The notes under the pieces: model-generated | What the model was told of the DNA's origin: nothing | The model's input: only the letters and a program-made list of their open reading frames with translations | Databases searched by the model: none | Position numbers and translations under genes: made by a program | Source: a virus | IMG/VR virus record: IMGVR_UViG_3300034418_006582 | Location: 14,157 to 78,156 of that record | Strand: one strand, 5' to 3' | DNA length: 64,000 nucleotides | Shown here: positions 960-16,110 of the stretch, in pieces | Layout of the letters: each line of letters opens with the position of its first letter | Numbering within the stretch: the first letter of the stretch is position 1

Positions 960-1300
960 GATAAATTGATCTTATCTAAGATCTCATTGATCTTGTTTGC
1001 TTTAACTGGATCTTTAAAGACATCGTAATTGATCGCTTTAGAAAAACCAAAGGGATCATTTTGCGATAGATCCTCTTTTAAGATCTCAATATCCGTATCA
1101 CTTAAAGTTAGATCCTCTATGATCGTTTTATTGATTAATTCAAAACTAAACCAATTATCGATCTTTTGATCCTCTAACTCTTTTAGTAATAATTCTCTAG
1201 CAATAGTTTTACCTTGTTTTGTTGCAACAGATACAACCTTTTCGGTCTTATCCATTAACTTAACGAGATAGTCATATTGCCATAAGTTTTTATTGGGCAT
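956..1300 (-). CDS. Hypothetical cassette protein (114 aa)
   Basis: GAGG RBS and variant leader AGTAATTAA upstream. Confidence 0.8.
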   Translation of the reverse strand: MPNKNLWQYDYLVKLMDKTEKVVSVATKQGKTIARELLLKELEDQKIDNWFSFELINKTIIEDLTLSDTDIEILKEDLSQNDPFGFSKAINYDVFKDPVKANKINEILDKINLS

Positions 1301-1350
1301 AATTTCCTCTTTCTCTTAATTACTAATTTAAGCATATCACACATCGGCAA
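1301..1350 (-). promoter_or_regulatory. Cassette promoter/leader (TATGCT-N6-AGTAATT...GAGG)
   Basis: Minus strand reads TTGCCG-atgtgtga-TATGCT-taaatt-AGTAATTAAGAGAAAGAGG. Confidence 0.65.
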
Positions 1351-1854: not shown

Positions 1855-2094
1855 TTAACCTCTTTCTATTTTTCTATATGTATCTAAAGAATTGTAATTT
1901 TCTTTAATTAATTTGCTAACCTTAACAACTCTATAAACTCTTTTACATGTGATTGGATCACTTATAAACATTTTTACAGAATTGCACTCACCTATTGAGT
2001 TATGATCAGCACAACCGTCAGCTTTCTTTTCTAAAATGAAAAAAAACTGATCACCGTATTTTTTTCCTATTTGATCTAAAGTCATAAACTTCAT
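1855..2094 (-). CDS. Hypothetical protein (79 aa)
   Basis: First gene after leader AGTAATCGAAAAGAAAGAGG. Confidence 0.75.
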   Translation of the reverse strand: MKFMTLDQIGKKYGDQFFFILEKKADGCADHNSIGECNSVKMFISDPITCKRVYRVVKVSKLIKENYNSLDTYRKIERG

Positions 2095-2100
2095 TGATCA

Positions 2101-2148
2101 CCTCTTTCTTTTCGATTACTGATCTAAGCATATCACAACTATGCAATT
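2101..2148 (-). promoter_or_regulatory. Cassette promoter/leader
   Basis: TTGCAT-agttgtga-TATGCT-tagatc-AGTAATCGA...GAGG. Confidence 0.7.
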
Positions 2149-2437: not shown

Positions 2438-2785
2438 TTAACTGTGACAAGTTACGACAAAAGCACATAATCTTTCTTTTATCGCTAAGTCCTCAGGCTT
2501 AGTACCTCGCAAGAGCTTATCCAACTCAGTCAAATCACCGTACTTTCCTCTGAAGTCGATATAAATTTGCTCATCTGCCTCATCGCCTAGAGCTTTAAAC
2601 AGACTTTCCAAACTGTCTATTGCTTTCAACTCAACAGATTTTCTTTCAGGTATTTCTATACTGTCATATTGTCCACCGTACTCAGTTTGTTTTTCGTACC
2701 AGTCAAGAATATTGCATGGCAAAAAGCCATTTTTAACACTCCAAACATGGTCGACAGTAGAAACACCAATGCCGTTTGTCCACAT
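2438..2785 (-). CDS. Hypothetical protein (115 aa)
   Basis: Single-gene cassette with leader and terminator. Confidence 0.8.
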   Translation of the reverse strand: MWTNGIGVSTVDHVWSVKNGFLPCNILDWYEKQTEYGGQYDSIEIPERKSVELKAIDSLESLFKALGDEADEQIYIDFRGKYGDLTELDKLLRGTKPEDLAIKERLCAFVVTCHS

Positions 2786-2804
2786 TTTATTTTTCCTTTT
2801 TTTA

Positions 2805-2849
2805 GTCGATTACTAATTTTAATTATAATTGCCTTTTACTTATATGCAA
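2805..2849 (-). promoter_or_regulatory. Cassette promoter TTGCAT-16-TATAAT-N7-AGTAATCGA
   Basis: Read from the reverse complement. Confidence 0.8.
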
Positions 2850-3554: not shown

Positions 3555-3802
3555 TATTTATTCCTCTCTATACAAGTTTCACACTCAAACTCAGGACCAC
3601 TACACCATGAGCAGTAACACTCATCGAATAAGCCCTCAGCATGTTGGCAACAAGTTGCACTATCAAAAGCATGAGTTTCCAATTCAACTGGATAAGTCTT
3701 AAACATATATCTGTCTAATACTTTTCCAGTAAACTCCCAAACACCTAAAAGCAAAAATGCAATCACGGTTATTGAGAATATAAGAAAAAATGCGTTTTCC
3801 AT
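3554..3802 (-). CDS. Small membrane protein with a Cys-rich C-terminus
   Basis: N-terminal hydrophobic helix; CC, CYCSWC and CETC. Confidence 0.7.
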   Translation of the reverse strand: MENAFFLIFSITVIAFLLLGVWEFTGKVLDRYMFKTYPVELETHAFDSATCCQHAEGLFDECYCSWCSGPEFECETCIERNK

Positions 3803-3816
3803 TTTTTATCCTTTCA

Positions 3817-3861
3817 ATCGATTACTAATTTAATTTTGATCACTTTTTGCTATTTTGTCAA
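3817..3861 (-). promoter_or_regulatory. Cassette promoter TTGACA-17-CAAAAT-N6-AGTAATCGA
   Basis: Read from the reverse complement. Confidence 0.75.
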
Positions 3862-4235
3862 GAATAGAAATAGAACTCATAATTATCTCGAAGTTCTTTG
3901 TAGTCTTTCTTTTCCTGACAATCATGATCTCTGTCTGCAAAATACAAAGTTGGAGTTCTGCAAAAGTCACAGACATGATGATGAATTGCAAAAGAAAAAT
4001 CGTCACGAGTTGTTATTGTAAAAGCCAACCAACCCAAGTCAGTATAAACTTTTATATCTACACCTGGGAAACTATGATTTTTTAAATAGTGTTCTGCACT
4101 AAAAACAAGTTGTTCCAAATGTTCTGCACTTTTCAACTTTGTATCATCAACAGAATATTTTTCAATATAAGTTTCTTGTGCAAATGAGTTATCGCCTTTA
4201 ACTCCGATTTTAAATTTATATTTTCTTTGTTTCAT
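3858..4235 (-). CDS. Hypothetical protein (125 aa)
   Basis: Leader AGTAATCGATAAAGAGG upstream; CDFC...HDC. Confidence 0.75.
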   Translation of the reverse strand: MKQRKYKFKIGVKGDNSFAQETYIEKYSVDDTKLKSAEHLEQLVFSAEHYLKNHSFPGVDIKVYTDLGWLAFTITTRDDFSFAIHHHVCDFCRTPTLYFADRDHDCQEKKDYKELRDNYEFYFYS

Positions 4236-4240
4236 TTTTA

Positions 4241-4284
4241 CCTCTTTATCGATTACTACTTATTAGAATAACACTATTTTGCAA
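4241..4284 (-). promoter_or_regulatory. Cassette promoter/leader
   Basis: TTGCAA-aatagtgt-TATTCT-N7-AGTAATCGA. Confidence 0.7.
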
Positions 4285-5018: not shown

Positions 5019-5300
5019 TTAACTTTTGTAATAGTTATTTATTGCGTTTTGCATTACGCTATCTTTTACAAAAAATTCATCAACTTCTACATTGTCAACA
5101 AACTTTTGTACATTGTAATTAAATTCCCAGTATTTTTTTTCCTCAAATGAAGTATGGTATTCATCATATTGGATTAACCATATGGTCTTACTACTACCTG
5201 GGATTATTTGTAAATCACGAAAACATAATTCCTCAAATAAAATCCAGCAATCGTTTTCAAAATTAACTGGATTTTTTTTAGTGTATTTTGGCTTAGCCAT
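5019..5300 (-). CDS. Hypothetical protein (93 aa)
   Basis: Leader and GAGG RBS upstream. Confidence 0.75.
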   Translation of the reverse strand: MAKPKYTKKNPVNFENDCWILFEELCFRDLQIIPGSSKTIWLIQYDEYHTSFEEKKYWEFNYNVQKFVDNVEVDEFFVKDSVMQNAINNYYKS

Positions 5301-5316
5301 TTTTTACCTCTTTTTA

Positions 5317-5362
5317 ATCGATTACTAATAACCATTATAGTTGCATATTTGTCTTATGCAAT
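5317..5362 (-). promoter_or_regulatory. Cassette promoter TTGCAT-16-TATAAT-N7-AGTAATCGA
   Basis: Read from the reverse complement. Confidence 0.8.
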
Positions 5363-6439: not shown

Positions 6440-6706
6440 TTATTGTCTATCTTTCTTTAATTTGATTTCATTAATAATACTTTTGCTACCGTTCCACGCT
6501 CCAGTTGTTATTAATTCAACTTCAAACCCCAAACCCTCTAACCAACTATTGATTTCATTTTCAATAGCTGTCGCAATATTAAAGGGATGATCTTCGACTT
6601 CATAATCTTCATTGTGTTGAAGATCATGAACTTCTAAATCTACATTTTCATCCAGTTTTAAAACTAGCTTATATTCAAAATGTAGGTTATCTAATTTGAT
6701 TAGCAT
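6440..6706 (-). CDS. Acidic hypothetical protein (88 aa)
   Basis: Leader AGTAATCGAAAAAGAGG upstream. Confidence 0.75.
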   Translation of the reverse strand: MLIKLDNLHFEYKLVLKLDENVDLEVHDLQHNEDYEVEDHPFNIATAIENEINSWLEGLGFEVELITTGAWNGSKSIINEIKLKKDRQ

Positions 6707-6711
6707 ATTTA

Positions 6712-6763
6712 CCTCTTTTTCGATTACTTATTTAATTATTGATCAACTTCTGATTTATGTCAA
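6712..6763 (-). promoter_or_regulatory. Cassette promoter TTGACA-17-AATAAT-N6-AGTAATCGA
   Basis: Read from the reverse complement. Confidence 0.75.
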
Positions 6764-8036: not shown

Positions 8037-8180
8037 TTAATTATTTCCTTTCAAATAATATTTCTTGTTTAATCTGTCTATTAATCTTTCAAAAAGATAA
8101 TTAGACAGAAAGCCTAAAGCAAAACAACCCAAAACAATAATTAAATATTCAGTTGGGTTTAAAGTGATTGTATCAACCAT
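8037..8180 (-). CDS. Small single-TM protein (47 aa, not in ORF track)
   Basis: Hand translation MVDTITLNPTEYLIIVLGCFALGFLSNYLFER...; directly after leader and GAGG. Confidence 0.7.
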   Translation of the reverse strand: MVDTITLNPTEYLIIVLGCFALGFLSNYLFERLIDRLNKKYYLKGNN

Positions 8181-8184
8181 TTTT

Positions 8185-8242
8185 TCCTCTTTCTTTTTCG
8201 ATTACTAATTTTAATATTAATCGCATATCAGAGTTATGCAAA
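8185..8242 (-). promoter_or_regulatory. Cassette promoter TTGCAT-16-TAATAT-N7-AGTAATCGA
   Basis: Read from the reverse complement. Confidence 0.75.
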
Positions 8243-9036: not shown

Positions 9037-9295
9037 CTAGCCTTTCCTTACCAGCCTCTCTCAACTTCCTAACTTCCTAACTCCCTATCTATGTCAGGAA
9101 ATAGGTGTTTTTGATACCTCCACAGCGCAATTCATAATGATATAGTATGAGTTCGGATATAGGCACCAGAAATCCAAATATAAATTAGATCCGAGAGAAC
9201 AAGATCAGAGCAAAATTCGAGAGAAATACGAGATATATAGCAGATATTGATCCAGATACGCTAGATCCGAGTATTTATCTATACAATAAGGGTAT

Positions 9296-9814
9296 ATGAG
9301 TGATGAAATAGAAATTATTGACTCGGTTGATGAAATTGATCGCAGCGGGAATACAGATATAGCTGTTGCGGATCAAGAGGATTTCGATATAGAGATTGTT
9401 GGTAGGCCAAGCAAATTAACCGATGACACAGTAAGGAAATTATCCTCTGGCTTGAAAATGGGTTTAAGTCAGAAAAAAGCAGCAGATTTTGCTGGAATAT
9501 CAGAAACTACTTTTTATAGGTGGCAAAGAGAGTTCCAGAAGATCGATAAGGCTTGTTTAGGTAACCCAGATCGTATAAATAACGCTGATGATCTCAATTT
9601 ATGGGAGTTTTGGCAGTCCTTAAAAAAGGCAAAGATCGAGGGCGAGCTTTCCCATATAGCTGTAATCACAGAGGCAGCGAATAATGGAGTATGGCAGGCT
9701 AGTGCTTGGTTCTTAGAGCGATCTAATCCACAAGATTGGGGTAAAGACAAGCGAGAACTTGAAGCTCATTCAGAGGGTAAGACAATAGAATTTAATATTA
9801 AATACAGTTCATAA
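9296..9814 (+). CDS. terS: Putative terminase small subunit (HTH)
   Basis: GRPSKLT-HTH N-terminus and WQASAWFLER..P..WG motif typical of terS-like phage proteins; upstream of terL. Confidence 0.6.
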   Translation: MSDEIEIIDSVDEIDRSGNTDIAVADQEDFDIEIVGRPSKLTDDTVRKLSSGLKMGLSQKKAADFAGISETTFYRWQREFQKIDKACLGNPDRINNADDLNLWEFWQSLKKAKIEGELSHIAVITEAANNGVWQASAWFLERSNPQDWGKDKRELEAHSEGKTIEFNIKYSS

Positions 9815-9815
9815 G

Positions 9816-9833
9816 TTTTCCGATATCGGAAAA
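9816..9833. promoter_or_regulatory. Perfect 18-bp palindrome TTTTCCGATATCGGAAAA
   Basis: Recurs at 62939-62954 (16 bp) and 15226-15235 (10-bp core). Confidence 0.5.
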
Positions 9834-9844
9834 GTGTTACACAA

Positions 9845-9948
9845 GACAAAAACCCTCCATTGCTGGAGGGCTTGTTGCCAGTAATACGAAAAAAAGGAGT
9901 CGTCCTGTGGTCTAGAAAGACCGAAGAGGACTCTTTTGATTCAGTACT
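9845..9948 (-). ncRNA. Candidate sRNA-1, complementary to the cassette leader and RBS
   Basis: TATGGT-N6-AGTA start; 5' stem; CCTTTTTTTCGTATTACT; CCCTCCA-GCAA-TGGAGGG-TTTTT terminator on the minus strand. Confidence 0.55.
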
Positions 9949-9997
9949 TATTTAACCATAAGTAGATTTATATGCAACAATATATTAAAATATTTTT

Positions 9998-10543
9998 ATG
10001 ACGGTAATACCTTTTCCTGATAAAAAATACAACATTATTTACGCAGATCCTCCCTGGTCATTTAAGAACTTTAGTAAAAAAGGCGAGGGTAGAAATCCTA
10101 ATCAGCATTATGCAACACAAGATCTGAACTGGATCAAGTCTTTACCTGTAAATGACATAGCTGATAAAGATTGTGTTTTATTTTTATGGGTAGTGAACCA
10201 CTCTTTACCACAGGCATTTGAAGTTATTGAAAGCTGGGGGTTTACTTACAAGACAGTAGCTTTCAACTGGGTTAAAAAAAATATGAAATCTGAGGGATTT
10301 TTCACTGGTTTAGGATATTGGACAAGAGGAAATCCAGAAATATGTTTATTAGCAACAAAAGGTAAACCAAGTAGAGTTTCTAAAGCTGTGAAAGAATTAG
10401 TAATAGAGCCTAGATCTAAACACAGCAAAAAACCAGACAGAATTAGAGATGATATTATTGACTTGTGTGGTGATCTCCCTAGAATTGAATTGTTTGCAAG
10501 GAATACGACTAAAGGATGGGATGTATGGGGGAATCAGATTTAA
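9998..10543 (+). CDS. MT-A70 family adenine methyltransferase
   Basis: IIYADPPW, HSKKP, RIELFAR, GWDVWGN. Confidence 0.92.
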   Translation: MTVIPFPDKKYNIIYADPPWSFKNFSKKGEGRNPNQHYATQDLNWIKSLPVNDIADKDCVLFLWVVNHSLPQAFEVIESWGFTYKTVAFNWVKKNMKSEGFFTGLGYWTRGNPEICLLATKGKPSRVSKAVKELVIEPRSKHSKKPDRIRDDIIDLCGDLPRIELFARNTTKGWDVWGNQI

Positions 10544-11073
10544 TACCTTTTCCAGAGAAAAAATATAATATTATTTATGCCGATCCACCGTGGTCTTATG
10601 ATTCAGGTTTTCTTAAAAGAAATTGGGACGGTAAGTACAATCAGATGAAACCACAGGAGATCTATGATCTACCAGTGCAAGATATAGCAGACGATAATTG
10701 TATTTTGTTTATGTGGATCACTTATCCTAAATTACTTATAGGTTTACAAGCTATGGAAAGTTGGGGATTCAAGTATCGCAGTGCAGCATTTACTTGGGTT
10801 AAAAGGAATAAGAAAGCAGACACTTGGTTTTGGGGTATGGGACATTGGACTAGAGCTAATGCTGAGGTCTGCTTTCTAGGTGTAAAAGGAAAACCTCAAA
10901 GAGAAAGTGCTAGTGTTCACTCAATCGTTGATGAAAGAATACAAGAACACTCAAAAAAACCAGATGTAGTTAGAAATAAAATTGTAGAGCTTTGTGGAGA
11001 TCTACCTCGTATAGAATTATTTGCAAGACAAAAAGTAGAGGGTTGGGATAGTTGGGGAAATGAAATTATTTAA
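10516..11073 (+). CDS. MT-A70 family adenine methyltransferase (tandem paralog)
   Basis: IIYADPPW, HSKKP, RIELFAR. Confidence 0.92.
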   Translation: MGCMGESDLIPFPEKKYNIIYADPPWSYDSGFLKRNWDGKYNQMKPQEIYDLPVQDIADDNCILFMWITYPKLLIGLQAMESWGFKYRSAAFTWVKRNKKADTWFWGMGHWTRANAEVCFLGVKGKPQRESASVHSIVDERIQEHSKKPDVVRNKIVELCGDLPRIELFARQKVEGWDSWGNEII

Positions 11074-11749
11074 TGGTGATTGTTTAGAAGTTATGAAAGA
11101 GTTACCAGATAACTCTATTGATTTAATTGTTACAAGTCCACCTTATGAAGATATTTCTGGTGCAGGATATCAAGCTAGTAACAAAGATATTCTATTTTTA
11201 AAGCTGTACTCAGAATTTATAGATCAAGTCTTTGAACAATACGCCAGGATCTTAAAACCTAACGGCCAGTTGTTTTTTAATATTAAAAGCAAAACAGCGC
11301 AAAAAAAATTAAGGACACCTCATTGGTTAGAATTTACAAATGCTTTTCAACAGCTTGATTTCAAAAGTTACATTATTTGGAAATATGCTGGTAGCTTTGA
11401 TAGTTCCAAAGCTAGATTCCATTTAGATTACGAAATTATATATCACCTTGCAAAAGGAGATGATATTTATTTAAACAGTGATTGTGGTATAGATGATCCA
11501 TTAACTTCTGTATGGTATGTACCACACAATATACCAAAAGCAGAAAGAATACACCCTACACAAATGCCATTAGCTCTGGCAGACAGAATATTAAAAATTG
11601 CCTCAAAACCAAACGATGTTGTTTTAGATAATTTTATGGGAAGTGGAACTACTGGTGTCGCTTGTATAAAAAACAATGTAGATTTTATTGGAATTGAATT
11701 AAACAACGATAATTACAAATTAGCAAAGGAGAGAATTGAAGCTATTTAA
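11060..11749 (+). CDS. Beta-class N4-C/N6-A DNA methyltransferase
   Basis: TSPPY...HPTQMP...DNFMGSGTT. Confidence 0.92.
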   Translation: MKLFNGDCLEVMKELPDNSIDLIVTSPPYEDISGAGYQASNKDILFLKLYSEFIDQVFEQYARILKPNGQLFFNIKSKTAQKKLRTPHWLEFTNAFQQLDFKSYIIWKYAGSFDSSKARFHLDYEIIYHLAKGDDIYLNSDCGIDDPLTSVWYVPHNIPKAERIHPTQMPLALADRILKIASKPNDVVLDNFMGSGTTGVACIKNNVDFIGIELNNDNYKLAKERIEAI

Positions 11750-12659
11750 TGGCGATTGTTTAGAGTTTATGGAAACTTTAGATCATTCTTCTGTTGATCT
11801 TATCTTATGTGATCTTCCCTATGGATTAATGAAAGATATAGGCAAAGATGATGGTAGATACACTAATGGTATGCTTGGAAAGTTTGATTGGGACAGCTCA
11901 ATAGATTTAGACAAGTTTTTTCTGATGTCGGAAAGATTACTAAGGGAATCAGGTAGATTAATACTTTTTGGAGTACAACCGTTTACAACAAACCTTATAA
12001 ATCATAGTTCTTATAATTTAAACTTTTCTTACACAATGATCTGGGAAAAGGATCACTTTGCAAACGCTTTTCAGGCTAAGAGAGCGCCTCTTAACTATTT
12101 TGAAGATATTATTGTTTTTACAAAAAGATACGACACCATGAACAATAATCCATTGCGACAATATTTTTCTTGGTTACAAAAACATATAGGTTGGAGTAAA
12201 GCAAAATTAATTTTAGAATTTGGACAAAGAATAGACCATACCTTTAGAACAGAAAGCACACAGTTCAAATTATGCACCGAAGAGGCTTATAACGATCTCA
12301 TTGAAAGATTCAACCTTGAAAATAACGAAAAATTTATTCCTTATAAAGAATTAAAAAAAATAAACAACAAGCATTTACAAACATTTAATTTAAAAAAAGG
12401 CGAAAAAATAAAAAGCAACATATTGAAATATCCTAGAGATGAGGAAAAAATACACCCAACACAGAAACCTGTTGATCTTTTAAAGGATATTATTTACAGC
12501 TTTACCAACAAAGGAGATCTTGTTGCAGATTTTACAATGGGTAGTGGCAGTACTGGAGTTGCAGCATTAGAATTAAAAAGAAATTTTATAGGATCCGAGT
12601 TAGATCCAGAGTTTTACGAAAAAGCAAAGGAACGAATTGATAACATTATTTCAAGGTGA
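11736..12659 (+). CDS. Beta-class N6-A/N4-C DNA methyltransferase with internal insertion
   Basis: CDLPY...HPTQKP...DFTMGSGST. Confidence 0.9.
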   Translation: MKLFNGDCLEFMETLDHSSVDLILCDLPYGLMKDIGKDDGRYTNGMLGKFDWDSSIDLDKFFLMSERLLRESGRLILFGVQPFTTNLINHSSYNLNFSYTMIWEKDHFANAFQAKRAPLNYFEDIIVFTKRYDTMNNNPLRQYFSWLQKHIGWSKAKLILEFGQRIDHTFRTESTQFKLCTEEAYNDLIERFNLENNEKFIPYKELKKINNKHLQTFNLKKGEKIKSNILKYPRDEEKIHPTQKPVDLLKDIIYSFTNKGDLVADFTMGSGSTGVAALELKRNFIGSELDPEFYEKAKERIDNIISR

Positions 12660-13299
12660 CGCTTTAGAAATATTAAAAGAAATGCAAGATGACTATGTAG
12701 ATCATGTTTTTACTAGTCCACCATACAATATTGGCAGAAGTAGATCTATACAATCAAAAGCAAAAGGTAAATATGAACATTTTGAAGATAGTAATGAAAA
12801 CTATTTTGATTGGTGTACAAAAATCATTGACCAGCTTTTAAGAGTTTCTAGTGGGTATGTTTTTTGGAATATACAAGCAAACTCACAAAATAAAAAAGAT
12901 GTTTTTAAACTAATAGGTCATTATGCAGATATTTTAGAACAAAACTTTATTTGGTATAAGCCTAATGCGACACCTAGTTCAAAACAATATTATGTTTCAA
13001 ATGTAGTTGAATATATTTTATGTTTTTCTAAATCTAAGGTAAAAGGAAATAAACATTTTTTAAGAAATCATGTTGAAATAAATAAAGGAACTAAGTATAT
13101 AAAAAACTTAAATGCACAAATGCCTCTTTCTTTAGCTGATCATTTTATTAAAAATTACACACAAAAGGGCGAAATTGTACTAGATCCTTTCTTAGGTAGT
13201 GGAACAACTGGAGTAGTTTGCATGAATAGACAAAGAAGTTTTATTGGTATAGAATTAGTACCAGAATATTTAGAAATAGCAAAAGAAAGAATCAAATGA
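12637..13299 (+). CDS. Beta-class N4-C/N6-A DNA methyltransferase
   Basis: TSPPY...DPFLGSGTT. Confidence 0.9.
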   Translation: MITLFQGDALEILKEMQDDYVDHVFTSPPYNIGRSRSIQSKAKGKYEHFEDSNENYFDWCTKIIDQLLRVSSGYVFWNIQANSQNKKDVFKLIGHYADILEQNFIWYKPNATPSSKQYYVSNVVEYILCFSKSKVKGNKHFLRNHVEINKGTKYIKNLNAQMPLSLADHFIKNYTQKGEIVLDPFLGSGTTGVVCMNRQRSFIGIELVPEYLEIAKERIK

Positions 13300-14906
13300 G
13301 ACTTGGCAGCATGTTTGCAGGTATTGGTGGTATAGAACTTGGCTTAGTTAGATCAGGACTTGTTACTGATGTCAAATGGCAAATAGATAACGATGAATTT
13401 TGTACAAAAATATTAAAAAAAAATTTTCCTGATAGTTTAGTTTTAAACAAAAATGTTGAGGAAATAAACACAAAAGATTTACCAGAGGTAGATATTATCA
13501 CAGCAGGTTTTCCTTGCCAGCCAGTAAGCGTGGCAGGAAACCAGAAAGGAGTATTAGATGAAAGATGGTTATGGGATGAAGTCGAAAGATTTATTAATGA
13601 GTTACGACCACCAGTCTTCATGTTGGAAAATGTCCCCAACATCCTCAGAGCAAGCAACGGAGAAGCCATTAATCGTGTCCTCAAAGGTGTGGCCGAAATG
13701 CGCCATTATAGATTTGAATGGCAACTTATATCAGCAAAGTTCGTTGGAGCAAGGCACAAAAGACAAAGATGGGTGGGAGTTGGAATCGTGGGAGACACCG
13801 AACACTATGGATCACTTGCCAGCGAGATCAGGGGACGCTTTGGAGAGAGCCTTGTATCGTGGAGATCCAGAGAGGAAGAGCAAAAGAAAATCTACTGGCA
13901 ACTTGCGAGAGAATCCGAAAATTTGGTTAACACCCACAACAATGGATCAGAAAGAGGACAGCCTGAAACACGCAACGAAACTCATGCAGGGGAAAACACG
14001 CAGAGCGACAGGTCACAGAATACAGAGAACTTTGAGCGATCAAGTCTGGATGGACATGATAGAAAAGGATCCGAGCCTAATGGAGTATTACCAGGATCAC
14101 GAGATAGTGAAACGACCAATGCTTCCAGATCAAATGGAGTTCGTGGAATATCTGAGGAGTCAGACATCAGCAACCAAACTTCAGAAATTGACAGGAATAA
14201 AGAAATCAACAGTGGATCATTGGTTCAGGAAAGACAAATACTTCAGTCATCCAACAGTGGATCAATGGATTCAGATCAAACCTCATCTACAGGAGATCAA
14301 ATACGACAAGGAATTGATGACAGTGGAAGTGATGGAGTGGAAAACCAAAGAGGAAATGGAGATGTGGCCGACACCATCGACACAGGACAACGAACACAAG
14401 AATTTGGAACTGAACGACAAGGGCAGGAGAGTAGCGAAAAGTGGGGGCGAGAGCAGATCCCTCAATCTAGCAGACAAAGTGCAAGTGAGGGAAAAGGAAA
14501 CTTTTTCGACACCAGCAGCAAGTCAAGCCTCAAAGCCAGTCAATCGCCATACCCCATCAGCGAGAGCAGGGAAACACGGCTCTACTTTGGAACAGGACAT
14601 TGGGGAACGAGATCCAACATTGATTGGCAAGCGCCTCAACCCAGCATGGGTGAACAGACTTATGGGTTACCCAGATGGTTGGCTGAACTTGGACTAACTA
14701 ACGATTGGGGAATTGATAGCGAGTGGGAAAAAGGACAAGAAAGAGTAGCTGAACGCAAAGATAATGATGTTGACAGACTTAAAGCTCTAGGAAATGGCGT
14801 AGTGCCACAATTCTCTGAGCTTGTAGGTCGATTAATCATCAGATCCATGATTGCAGAAACTTTAGTCTTTGATCCAGAAATCGTTAAGGTAGATCGTCCT
14901 CAGTAA
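13296..14906 (+). CDS. C5-cytosine DNA methyltransferase, large (alpha) chain
   Basis: FAGIGG (I), GFPCQ (IV), ENV (VI), HKRQR (VIII), LKALGNGVVP (X); low-complexity middle; no motif IX in this frame. Confidence 0.88.
   Translation: MRLGSMFAGIGGIELGLVRSGLVTDVKWQIDNDEFCTKILKKNFPDSLVLNKNVEEINTKDLPEVDIITAGFPCQPVSVAGNQKGVLDERWLWDEVERFINELRPPVFMLENVPNILRASNGEAINRVLKGVAEMRHYRFEWQLISAKFVGARHKRQRWVGVGIVGDTEHYGSLASEIRGRFGESLVSWRSREEEQKKIYWQLARESENLVNTHNNGSERGQPETRNETHAGENTQSDRSQNTENFERSSLDGHDRKGSEPNGVLPGSRDSETTNASRSNGVRGISEESDISNQTSEIDRNKEINSGSLVQERQILQSSNSGSMDSDQTSSTGDQIRQGIDDSGSDGVENQRGNGDVADTIDTGQRTQEFGTERQGQESSEKWGREQIPQSSRQSASEGKGNFFDTSSKSSLKASQSPYPISESRETRLYFGTGHWGTRSNIDWQAPQPSMGEQTYGLPRWLAELGLTNDWGIDSEWEKGQERVAERKDNDVDRLKALGNGVVPQFSELVGRLIIRSMIAETLVFDPEIVKVDRPQ
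13558..14697 (+). CDS. Nested alternative-frame C5-MTase subunit (motif IX plus 4 WxTP repeats)
   Basis: 379-codon open frame; AAGGAG RBS upstream; ends RLNPAWVNRLMGYPDGW (motif IX-like). Confidence 0.8.
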   Translation: MKDGYGMKSKDLLMSYDHQSSCWKMSPTSSEQATEKPLIVSSKVWPKCAIIDLNGNLYQQSSLEQGTKDKDGWELESWETPNTMDHLPARSGDALERALYRGDPERKSKRKSTGNLRENPKIWLTPTTMDQKEDSLKHATKLMQGKTRRATGHRIQRTLSDQVWMDMIEKDPSLMEYYQDHEIVKRPMLPDQMEFVEYLRSQTSATKLQKLTGIKKSTVDHWFRKDKYFSHPTVDQWIQIKPHLQEIKYDKELMTVEVMEWKTKEEMEMWPTPSTQDNEHKNLELNDKGRRVAKSGGESRSLNLADKVQVREKETFSTPAASQASKPVNRHTPSARAGKHGSTLEQDIGERDPTLIGKRLNPAWVNRLMGYPDGWLNLD

Positions 14907-15297: not shown

Positions 15298-15390
15298 CGG
15301 AATTCCGCGGAATTCCGTGTGACACCACCTCGGAATTCCGTGGCTAGAGTAGAGTAGAGTAGAGAAGAGTAGACTAGAGTAGAGAAGAGT
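15298..15390. repeat. Origin-like repeats: CGGAATTCCG x3 plus AGAGT-like pentamer x9
   Basis: Palindromes at 15298, 15308 and 15331; pentamers 15346-15390; AT-rich tract 15085-15170. Confidence 0.7.
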
Positions 15391-15422
15391 ATATAATATA
15401 TATTAGAAAGGTCAGGTAAGAA

Positions 15423-15800
15423 ATGAATATTATGGTTAGTTTTGAAAGCACTGAAGATTATATCTTAAAAGCTGAAAATGAAACTGAAGCAATAAAAATA
15501 GTACAAATGATTTGGGATCATAAACAAGAATCACAAAACGATCTATTAAAGCAATATGACATAGATTACTCACTTGATGTTAGTAAGAAGTATGTTGAAG
15601 TAGAAGATCAAGAAGAAGACAATATTGTTTTAGATTATAAAGTCACATTTGTTATGACTGGAAAAAGTCCAGAAGATGCTATAGACAATTTCCACGAAAT
15701 GATGAAAGGTGGGCTAGACTATATACCACCAATTGTTGAGCCAGTTATAAATGATGAGTATGAACTTTTAACTGGGATCAAAGCAGAAGGGACAGCATAA
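15423..15800 (+). CDS. Acidic hypothetical protein
   Basis: ORF with RBS. Confidence 0.75.
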   Translation: MNIMVSFESTEDYILKAENETEAIKIVQMIWDHKQESQNDLLKQYDIDYSLDVSKKYVEVEDQEEDNIVLDYKVTFVMTGKSPEDAIDNFHEMMKGGLDYIPPIVEPVINDEYELLTGIKAEGTA

Positions 15801-15994
15801 TGGCAAGTGAATTTAATTTTCCAGCAGGAACAAAAAGAAAAGATGCACTGCATGAATTAATTGATTCTGATGATTTTATGGAAGTTGTTTTAAAACAATT
15901 TAATTACATGAGGATCAAAGGAATTAATTTAGTACAAGACGCAGATGATCTAGTAAATTTATATTTAAAAGTTTGCAAAGAAATTCCTGAGTAG
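15800..15994 (+). CDS. Hypothetical protein
   Basis: TAATG overlap with the upstream gene. Confidence 0.7.
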   Translation: MASEFNFPAGTKRKDALHELIDSDDFMEVVLKQFNYMRIKGINLVQDADDLVNLYLKVCKEIPE

Positions 15995-16006
15995 TATAAT
16001 TTTTTT

Positions 16007-16110
16007 GTATTCATCTATGGATCAATCCATAGTAAGCTGTAACAGAAAACGCCTTTCGTGTTACTGACTGAATAAGAAAGCGAGGTCTTCAACCACCTCG
16101 CTTTTTTATT
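16007..16110 (+). ncRNA. Candidate sRNA-2 with CCTTTCGTGTTACT
   Basis: TTGCAA-16-TATAAT promoter (15973-16000); CTATGG/CCATAG stem; AAAGCGAGGT/ACCTCGCTTT terminator. Confidence 0.55.

Follow-up and report, generated by a model that had tools for sequence, protein, structure and literature searches.

The question raised by this locus is what is encoded in the 183-bp gap that separates two plus-strand phage genes, those for the terminase small subunit (terS) and a DNA methyltransferase, and what the product could act upon. A preliminary description had placed there a small RNA complementary to the leaders of the phage's own gene cassettes. The window, i.e. the whole stretch of DNA analyzed, is 64,000 nt long and corresponds to bases 14157-78156 of a 78,156-bp IMG/VR record rated complete; coordinates below are window positions unless stated otherwise. 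The genome is AT-rich (G+C about 34%); its genes are read from the minus strand as far as about 8.2 kb and from the plus strand beyond about 8.8 kb, and the large terminase, portal, protease and capsid genes lie downstream of the methyltransferase cluster. DNA runs holding the stretch were from freshwater metagenomes and related contigs from freshwater and marine metagenomes. No close cultured phage was found, and a search for host or cultured relatives gave only distant relatives of TerS. The genes flanking the gap, in which the unit referred to as sRNA-1 lies, are:

9296-9814, plus strand: terS (phrog_4102 at E = 2e-30, with HTH Pfam matches), convergent with sRNA-1.
9998-10543, plus strand (promoter from 9986): first DNA methyltransferase gene, at which six tandem methyltransferase genes start.

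The first methyltransferase gene is apparently leaderless, TAAAAT at 9986-9991 being followed after 6 nt by the ATG at 9998 without a Shine-Dalgarno (SD) sequence; relatives have TATAAT, 6 nt and ATG. The methyltransferase promoter stands back to back with the promoter of sRNA-1. Read along the minus strand, the elements of sRNA-1 are:

9950-9977, minus strand: promoter, with -35 element TTGCAT (9977-9972), a 16-nt spacer and an extended -10 element TG-G-TTAAAT (9958-9950).
9848-9943, minus strand: predicted transcript of about 96 nt, with a putative start at 9943-9941 and its 3' end in a U5 tract (9852-9848).
About 9893-9937, minus strand: hairpin 1, in whose basal stem the A-rich, SD-like 5' arm AAAGAGUCC pairs with the anti-SD arm GGACGACUCCUUU; its apical stem is GGUC/GACC and its loop UUUCUA.
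9880-9899, minus strand: anti-leader segment CUCCUUUUUUUCGUAUUACU, with its 3' half CGUAUUACU in a single-stranded linker and its 5' half, the anti-SD, in the stem base.
9845-9873, minus strand: intrinsic terminator with stem CCCUCCA/UGGAGGG, a GCAA tetraloop and the U5 tail (9852-9848).

The stem, the segment and the GCAA-loop terminator with its U-tract that had been reported earlier are thus all present on the minus strand; the segment as then written, CCTTTTTTTCGTATTACT, was located at 9897-9880, and the linker includes UACU and CGUAUUAC. The unit was also said to be free of open reading frames, and no minus-strand ORF was found in it. A 31-amino-acid ORF with a TTG start on the plus strand (9860-9955) was rejected as a candidate: it is not conserved and, in a by-eye reading, is interrupted by a stop in L063, the closest (85%) relative. 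A promoter of its own and a Rho-independent terminator enclose this short ORF-less unit, as is generic for trans-encoded sRNAs. No Rfam family matched, with the whole window searched at gathering scores and the locus at E <= 10 (the best score at the locus was 22.7 bits, for Phe_leader, whose gathering score is 55), and a tRNA/tmRNA scan of the window found none.

Two overlapping -10 readings, TATGGT (9960-9955) and the extended -10 element TG-G-TTAAAT (9958-9950), lead to different transcription starts. The cassette-style start of the preliminary description, TATGGT followed by AGTA at 9948-9945, is present in the sequence, but TATGGT has no usable -35 element (TTGCAT is only 11 nt distant) and is missing from the 85% relative. 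The geometry TTGCAT/TTGCTT, 16 nt, TGnT(A/T)AnnT is present in all relatives, which support the TTAAAT reading. The start formerly proposed (AGUA at 9948) was probably set 5-7 nt too far upstream, and transcription would begin about 7 nt after the extended -10 element, near 9943-9941. The two starts differ in predicted fold. With the 9948 start (104 nt; -42 kcal/mol, z = -6.3) the anti-leader linker is fully paired with the RNA's own 5' end, and the earlier caveat that the segment can pair with that end holds for this version; with the 9943 start (-35.2 kcal/mol) the part complementary to the leaders' 5' ends is left single-stranded, at a predicted unpaired probability of 0.73 versus 0.20 for the anti-SD part. 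Across relatives the predicted unpaired probability of the former part was 0.6-0.95 in most variants (0.48-0.95 overall) and that of the anti-SD part, in the stem base, 0.12-0.42.

Conservation was followed with the TerS protein as query, which retrieved 40 viral and 80 metagenome loci. The unit was found in the gap after terS at every locus with TerS at about 53% identity or above, except in one subgroup that carries a convergent gene in its place; no copy of the sRNA-1 core was found in bacterial genomes. About 19 non-identical versions of the unit, from loci with TerS 53-85% identical, fell into six sequence types:

Type A: the window, L063 and L066.
Type A': L068.
Type B: L071, L074, L076, L081, L086, L089, L095 and L007.
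Type C: L075/L015.
Type D: L082, L083 and L085.
Type E: L069, L072, L079 and L080.

All types share a TTGCAT-like -35 element, a 16-nt spacer, an extended -10 element (TGnTAAnnT), a 5' hairpin, a linker of 12-18 nt and a terminator with a minus-strand U-run. Hairpin 1 keeps its shape in types A', C, D and E, although its sequence is wholly different there. The terminator stems vary between types by compensatory changes, and their loops are GCAA (once GAAA) or UUCG, tetraloops that are stable only on the minus strand. When all six types were aligned with MAFFT the terminators came out misaligned, and RNAalifold then recovered the apical stem only, which covaries across types; the full structure was recovered from an alignment of the A and B subset. 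In the latter, 9 of 10 sequences have G.U at the hairpin pair of columns 25/36, an A.C mismatch if read on the plus strand, and two further hairpin pairs switch from U-A to U-G, again leaving A.C mismatches on the plus strand. The stems covary, and the G.U pairs, loops and U-runs fit the minus strand only; these signals argue for selection on a minus-strand RNA, and we consider it very probable that a minus-strand small RNA gene is present. The only invariant blocks of the 19-sequence alignment, UACU and CCUU, both lie in the linker, and the persistence of the linker where hairpins were replaced likewise points to selection on RNA rather than to the decay of a relic.

The plus strand of the gap could nonetheless be the functional one, with a leader-like ribosome-binding site and a start-stop mini-ORF that captures ribosomes, or couples translation, ahead of the methyltransferases. 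Types A and B do contain AAGGAG, 7 nt and GTG/TTG-N3-TAG, the mini-ORF being GTG GTC TAG here and TTG ATC TAG in relatives. Read by eye, this arrangement is not conserved elsewhere, with four codons in type A', six in type C, no start in type D and an ATG before the SD in type E; no plus-strand promoter lies at the right distance, and the structural signals favor the minus strand, so that this explanation is very improbable.

The convergent arrangement with terS allows another account, in which the locus acts only in cis, either as a bidirectional terminator or insulator made of two hairpins, which would separate terS from the methyltransferase operon, or as an antisense RNA against terS read-through (by convergent transcription and duplex cleavage), in both cases without trans targets. 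The terminator abuts the terS stop, and the unit's promoter is placed back to back with the leaderless methyltransferase promoter. Metatranscriptome contigs from four runs were mapped to 9300-10500: terS was covered, 9900-10048 was without cover and one 151-nt contig reached 9899. Neither strand nor transcript ends nor levels can be read from such contigs, and libraries of this kind usually lose small RNAs, so the coverage gap says nothing for or against expression of sRNA-1. The terS contigs ended at 9807, 9840 and 9846 (three runs), just short of the terminator hairpin, which hints weakly at an end of terS transcripts there; the stops at 9840 and 9846 (two runs) would suit the cis-only account to the same slight degree. 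On the plus strand, however, the terminator has no U-run and hairpin 1 contains A.C mismatches, and neither the invariance of the linker nor its match to the early leaders and its co-variation with them between lineages (see below) is accounted for. A purely local role is improbable on this evidence.

The linker was compared with the early leaders of the phage. An exact AGTAATCGA occurs at seven minus-strand sites (8206, 6728, 5326, 4257, 3826, 2814 and 2120), each 6-7 nt after a -10 hexamer with a TTGCAT or TTGACA -35 element 16-17 nt upstream, and each followed 3' by an A-rich run, AAGAGG/AAGGA and then ATG. Variants starting with AGTAAT were found at 1324. The 14 kb that precede the window hold others, at two minus-strand promoters and at one on the plus strand, and two plus-strand promoters farther along in the window also carry one. 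About 11-13 transcription units are predicted from these sites to yield mRNAs that begin with a common tag. Cassettes with recurring promoters, leaders and terminators are arrayed in the early region, and the predicted targets comprise at least 11 separate units at 1.7-12 kb from sRNA-1, including the following early leaders:

8178-8206, minus strand: AGUAAUCGA...AAGAGG...AUG, predicted target; duplex -21.4 kcal/mol.
6704-6728, minus strand: leader of the 17-bp duplex, predicted target; -18.7 kcal/mol, dimer ddG -8.9 kcal/mol.
5298-5326, minus strand: predicted target.
4233-4257, minus strand: predicted target.
3800-3826, minus strand: predicted target.
2783-2814, minus strand: predicted target.
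2092-2120, minus strand: predicted target; dimer ddG -11.3 kcal/mol.
1298-1324, minus strand: variant leader AGUAAUUAAGAG..., predicted target.

The duplex of 17 bp that had been described for the segment with leader 6728-6712 (6 bp, a 1-nt bulge and 11 bp with one G.U) is exact and was reproduced by RNAduplex at -18.7 kcal/mol. Pairing with the other leaders, described at first as partial, extended to 13 of 13 AGTAAT-type leaders, all of which paired from their first base with AUUACU of the linker (RNAduplex). The mean leader duplex was -15.8 kcal/mol, compared with -7.4 +/- 0.6 kcal/mol for 500 shuffled linkers (z about -13.7), and 0 of the 500 shuffles did as well. Because a genome-wide RNAduplex scan was noisy, long-loop duplexes giving non-leader windows similar raw energies, it was replaced by a comparison of translation-initiation regions and by dimer ddG values. 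Across 77 translation-initiation regions the tagged ones had a mean of -17.0 versus -11.1 for the others (Mann-Whitney p = 6e-6), with tagged cassette regions at ranks 1, 2, 4, 5, 7, 9, 10, 12 and 13. Net of self-structure, dimer ddG was favorable for 11 of 11 leaders, with means of -10.4 (9943 start) and -7.8 (9948 start); 66 control regions had a mean of -5.5 kcal/mol, and 14% of them reached -8 or better and so overlapped with the leaders. The modeled separation between leaders and controls is therefore clear, not absolute. sRNA-1 accordingly has a seed that is predicted to be accessible and is complementary to translation-initiation regions encoded elsewhere, as expected of a trans-acting sRNA, while the predicted sequestration of the anti-SD half in the RNA's own stem counts against the pairing model.

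A trans-pairing RNA is predicted to track lineage-specific changes in its leaders, and the linker does so. Leader tags of each lineage were read from promoters upstream of terS or elsewhere in the related records:

Type A: leader start AGUAAU (21/22); linker complement AGUAAUACGAAAAAAAGGAG.
Type C: leader start AGUAUC / AGUAUU (5/5); linker complement AGUAUCGAACAAAAAAGGA.
Type E: leader start AGUACA (3/3); linker complement AGUACAGACAUGAAGGAAA.
Type B: leader start AGUAAUUGAUUAACA (2/3); linker complement AGUAUUUGACAAACAAAAGGAG, with a mismatch at position 5 and matches further in.

Mean duplexes within a lineage were -16.7, -18.9, -20.1 and -19.2 kcal/mol, whereas all cross pairs fell between -8.8 and -13.7 kcal/mol, and the true assignment of RNAs to leaders was the best of 24 permutations by a margin of 12.6 kcal/mol, in a comparison that comprises four lineages with few leaders in types B and E (3 each). 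Seed and targets thus co-vary among relatives, as is expected of sRNAs generally, and this co-variation is the strongest evidence, at the level of sequence, for a trans-pairing RNA. For the remaining types, early-leader starts of AGUAUCGAAC... (type D) and AGUAAUAACAAAAAAAGG (type A') are predicted. Two checks named in the preliminary description, duplex energy against shuffled controls and covariation in relatives, here of linker with leaders, thus came out in favor of pairing, and the pairing relationship appears strongly supported by the comparative evidence.

The same pattern of identity would be seen if the plus strand held a copy of a leader kept similar by recombination. The locus would then be an inverted, promoter-less early-leader copy, a relic or an empty regulatory cassette, such as those by which genes are shuffled in hyperplastic regions of phages, maintained by recombination or gene conversion, and its transcript a by-product without trans function. 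The plus strand does resemble a leader (AGTAATACGA-A7-GGAG), in the window the RNA's 5' arm is leader-like too, and the early region is an array of repeated elements comparable to PeSL cassettes (PMC2839356, PMC4122927). The likeness, however, is limited to the stretch from +1 through the SD and excludes the promoter: it stops at +1, and what lies upstream of AGTA on the plus strand is the terminator, which argues against simple homogenization of whole cassettes. Position, own promoter, terminator and architecture were all kept where hairpin 1 was wholly replaced (types A', C, D and E), and UACU/CCUU of the linker stayed invariant throughout. What is conserved is antisense to leaders and constant across types while hairpins were exchanged, and not what a PeSL-like empty cassette would be expected to retain. 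We therefore regard a relic as unlikely.

Binding of one protein at all copies of a DNA site likewise predicts the observed identities. AGTA(A)T...CGA could be a site for a phage or host protein at early start sites, whether an operator or a site of sigma-dependent pausing or loading, with the RNA complementarity incidental. In every early promoter this motif covers +1 to +9, beginning 6-7 nt past the -10 element; it is partly palindromic (TAATCGATTA in some copies), and as a DNA site could function in either orientation. Against it, the likeness extends over the A-tract and the SD at the spacing seen in leaders, for which a start-site operator has no need; the copy at issue is part of an exposed linker, within a transcript that is structured and terminated and shows stem covariation on one strand; and no candidate binding protein was identified. 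This explanation is improbable. Each of the alternatives accounts for part of the data. What none of them covers is the joint occurrence of an exposed linker that is invariant, a likeness of leader length including the SD spacing, one-strand covariation and lineage-matched changes.

Our preferred reading is that sRNA-1 is a trans-acting RNA that would bind all early mRNAs from the 5' end through the SD and repress them, to which we assign a probability of roughly 0.6. In the pathway that we infer, host sigma70 RNA polymerase would transcribe the RNA of about 96 nt from the minus strand, and its own intrinsic terminator would end the transcript. The single-stranded linker (...CGUAUUACU) is complementary to the first nucleotides, AGUAAU(C)G, predicted for at least 11-13 early mRNAs, and the adjoining U-run and CUCC to the A-rich tract and SD of their leaders. 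The free 5' end of a leader may dock on the exposed linker as on a toehold, after which pairing could spread into the base of hairpin 1, displacing its SD-like 5' arm, until the SD is covered. Ribosome loading would then be blocked on every tagged mRNA, and decay would probably be faster. The CUCCUUU segment presumably resembles the anti-SD end of 16S rRNA, so sRNA-1 would compete with the ribosome, and the leader tag would supply specificity. The U-rich linker, U-tailed terminator and A-rich leaders would be compatible with, and do not demand, Hfq dependence; no Hfq gene was found in the phage.

The promoter of sRNA-1, judged by its elements, is of the sigma70/TTGCAT class, the same as the early promoters, so the RNA is probably made alongside its targets. 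The earlier interpretation of a trans-acting RNA stands as regards a discrete, conserved, ORF-less minus-strand unit that is antisense to the leaders from +1 to the SD and matched to them by lineage; its master off-switch, if understood as separately timed, is less probable, since a promoter of the early type is not enough to make a temporal switch. The likely role, given this promoter, would be delayed, dose-dependent damping or shut-off of early protein synthesis as the RNA accumulates, or the silencing of superinfecting genomes of the same type. Going further, leader tag and linker might form a lineage-specific RNA 'address code', in which types A, B, C/D and E silence only mRNAs bearing their own tag and which serves both as a timer of the early regulon and as heteroimmunity, or superinfection exclusion, against same-type relatives; this extension is doubtful. 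If such a code exists, a gene would become a member of the regulon simply by being captured into a tagged cassette.

We class sRNA-1 with the antisense, base-pairing regulators of phages, a kind that is already known. The closest known parallels are the c4 antisense RNA of phages P1 and P7 (immI) and the CI RNA of satellite phage P4, which repress the phage's own early or anti-repressor functions through base pairing to short, repeated targets on or close to ribosome-binding sites. Their specificity classes (P1 versus P7, and P4 versus its relatives) are set by matched changes in RNA and target, and the linker and leader pairs of sRNA-1 are matched by lineage in like manner. Both RNAs arise by processing of the leader of the very operon they regulate, in which they have two target sites, and they belong to temperate or plasmid-like elements in which their role is immunity. 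By contrast, sRNA-1 has its own promoter and terminator, lies far from its predicted targets, between terS and the methyltransferases and not in the leader of an operon it represses, and would address at least 11 separate units via their 5' ends; no tyrosine integrase was found in the phage, and sRNA-1 has no sequence or Rfam similarity to c4 or CI.

Canonical trans-encoded sRNAs block ribosome-binding sites; an Hfq-type architecture is known, and C/U-rich anti-SD seeds occur in Gram-positive sRNAs such as RsaE. sRNA-1 resembles them in its independent promoter, 5' hairpin, single-stranded seed, U-rich stretch by the terminator and predicted pairing across several SDs. It differs in that its targets would be a family of phage mRNAs with a standardized 5' tag, not unrelated mRNAs with short seed matches, and in that pairing would begin at +1 and run for about 17 bp. 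OOP of lambda and sar of P22 are short, terminated cis-antisense phage RNAs that overlap a single target gene; sRNA-1 would share with them a short, terminated antisense transcript that acts by pairing, but it overlaps no early gene. The phage sRNAs known to control their phage's own program come from a handful of temperate elements, with one RNA per operon.

Among proteins, the endoribonuclease RegB and the translational repressor RegA of T4 shut off a class of early mRNAs via a shared feature of translation initiation (PMC3014915). The proposed role of sRNA-1 in post-transcriptional shut-off of early mRNAs is similar, with the difference that the specificity element here would be an RNA and those of T4 are proteins. 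The PeSL (promoter-stem-loop) cassettes of T4-type phages are described as recombination and regulatory modules (PMC2839356, PMC4122927); the tagged leaders here are carried by a comparable array of modules of early promoter, small ORF and terminator with repeated regulatory ends, and PeSL leaders are not known from those papers to be addressed by an antisense RNA. No precedent for a shared-leader regulon was found in the literature searched, a non-exhaustive set that included a 2025 review of phage sRNAs (PMC12197685).

If the proposed function is confirmed, a single RNA would govern a dozen independent transcription units of the early class via a standardized 5' tag in an apparently virulent, uncultured group of aquatic phages. 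It would stand, as an RNA, beside protein shut-off factors, T4 RegB and RegA among them, would explain why early leaders are standardized in cassette arrays, and would provide naturally orthogonal pairs of sRNA and leader (types A, C and E) usable in synthetic biology. With the comparative data at hand, the idea is open to testing by a simple two-plasmid reporter system, for which culture of the phage is unnecessary.

Further observations were made in the course of the analysis. A second ORF-less, sRNA-like unit lies at 15973-16107 on the plus strand. Behind a TTGCAA-16 nt-TATAAT promoter it comprises a 5' hairpin, a middle hairpin in which the stem covaries and GCCUUUC is conserved, and a strong terminator (fold z = -6.5), and four related records keep the unit at the end of the same gene. 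As a candidate anti-leader sRNA it was rejected, the pairing of 16007-16107 (plus strand) with the leaders being -7 to -12.5 kcal/mol, near the shuffled baseline, and not lineage-matched.

Immediately 3' of the terS stop, at 9816-9833, is a perfect 18-bp palindrome, TTTTCCGATATCGGAAAA, which is kept in L063 and L068 with differences only in its two central bases, behaving in this like a hairpin. Contigs of relatives commonly start 20-140 nt upstream of terS (window about 9200-9296), as is the case for L004, L006, L008, L009, L011, L066, L071, L074 and L075, which suggests a physical genome end (pac/cos) or a repeated assembly break.

Ten copies of a repeat of about 66 nt, with the core TTGAAAAT-N7-TTAATGATAAG, occur in plus orientation between 227 and 7236; they are sited at early-cassette junctions and often paired 54 nt apart. 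A tandem run of GAGTAGA-like repeats is present at about 15336-15395 (plus strand), just upstream of a gene starting at 15423, and at the equivalent position in two related records (L048 and L050). Nine DNA methyltransferase genes are carried by this one 78-kb phage. The six in tandem after terS (9998-14906, plus strand) comprise two MT-A70, three N6/N4 and one C5 enzyme, the remaining three, all N6/N4, lie at the left end of the record (L143:656-2877, minus strand), and paralogous pairs share 72-85% DNA identity over short stretches.
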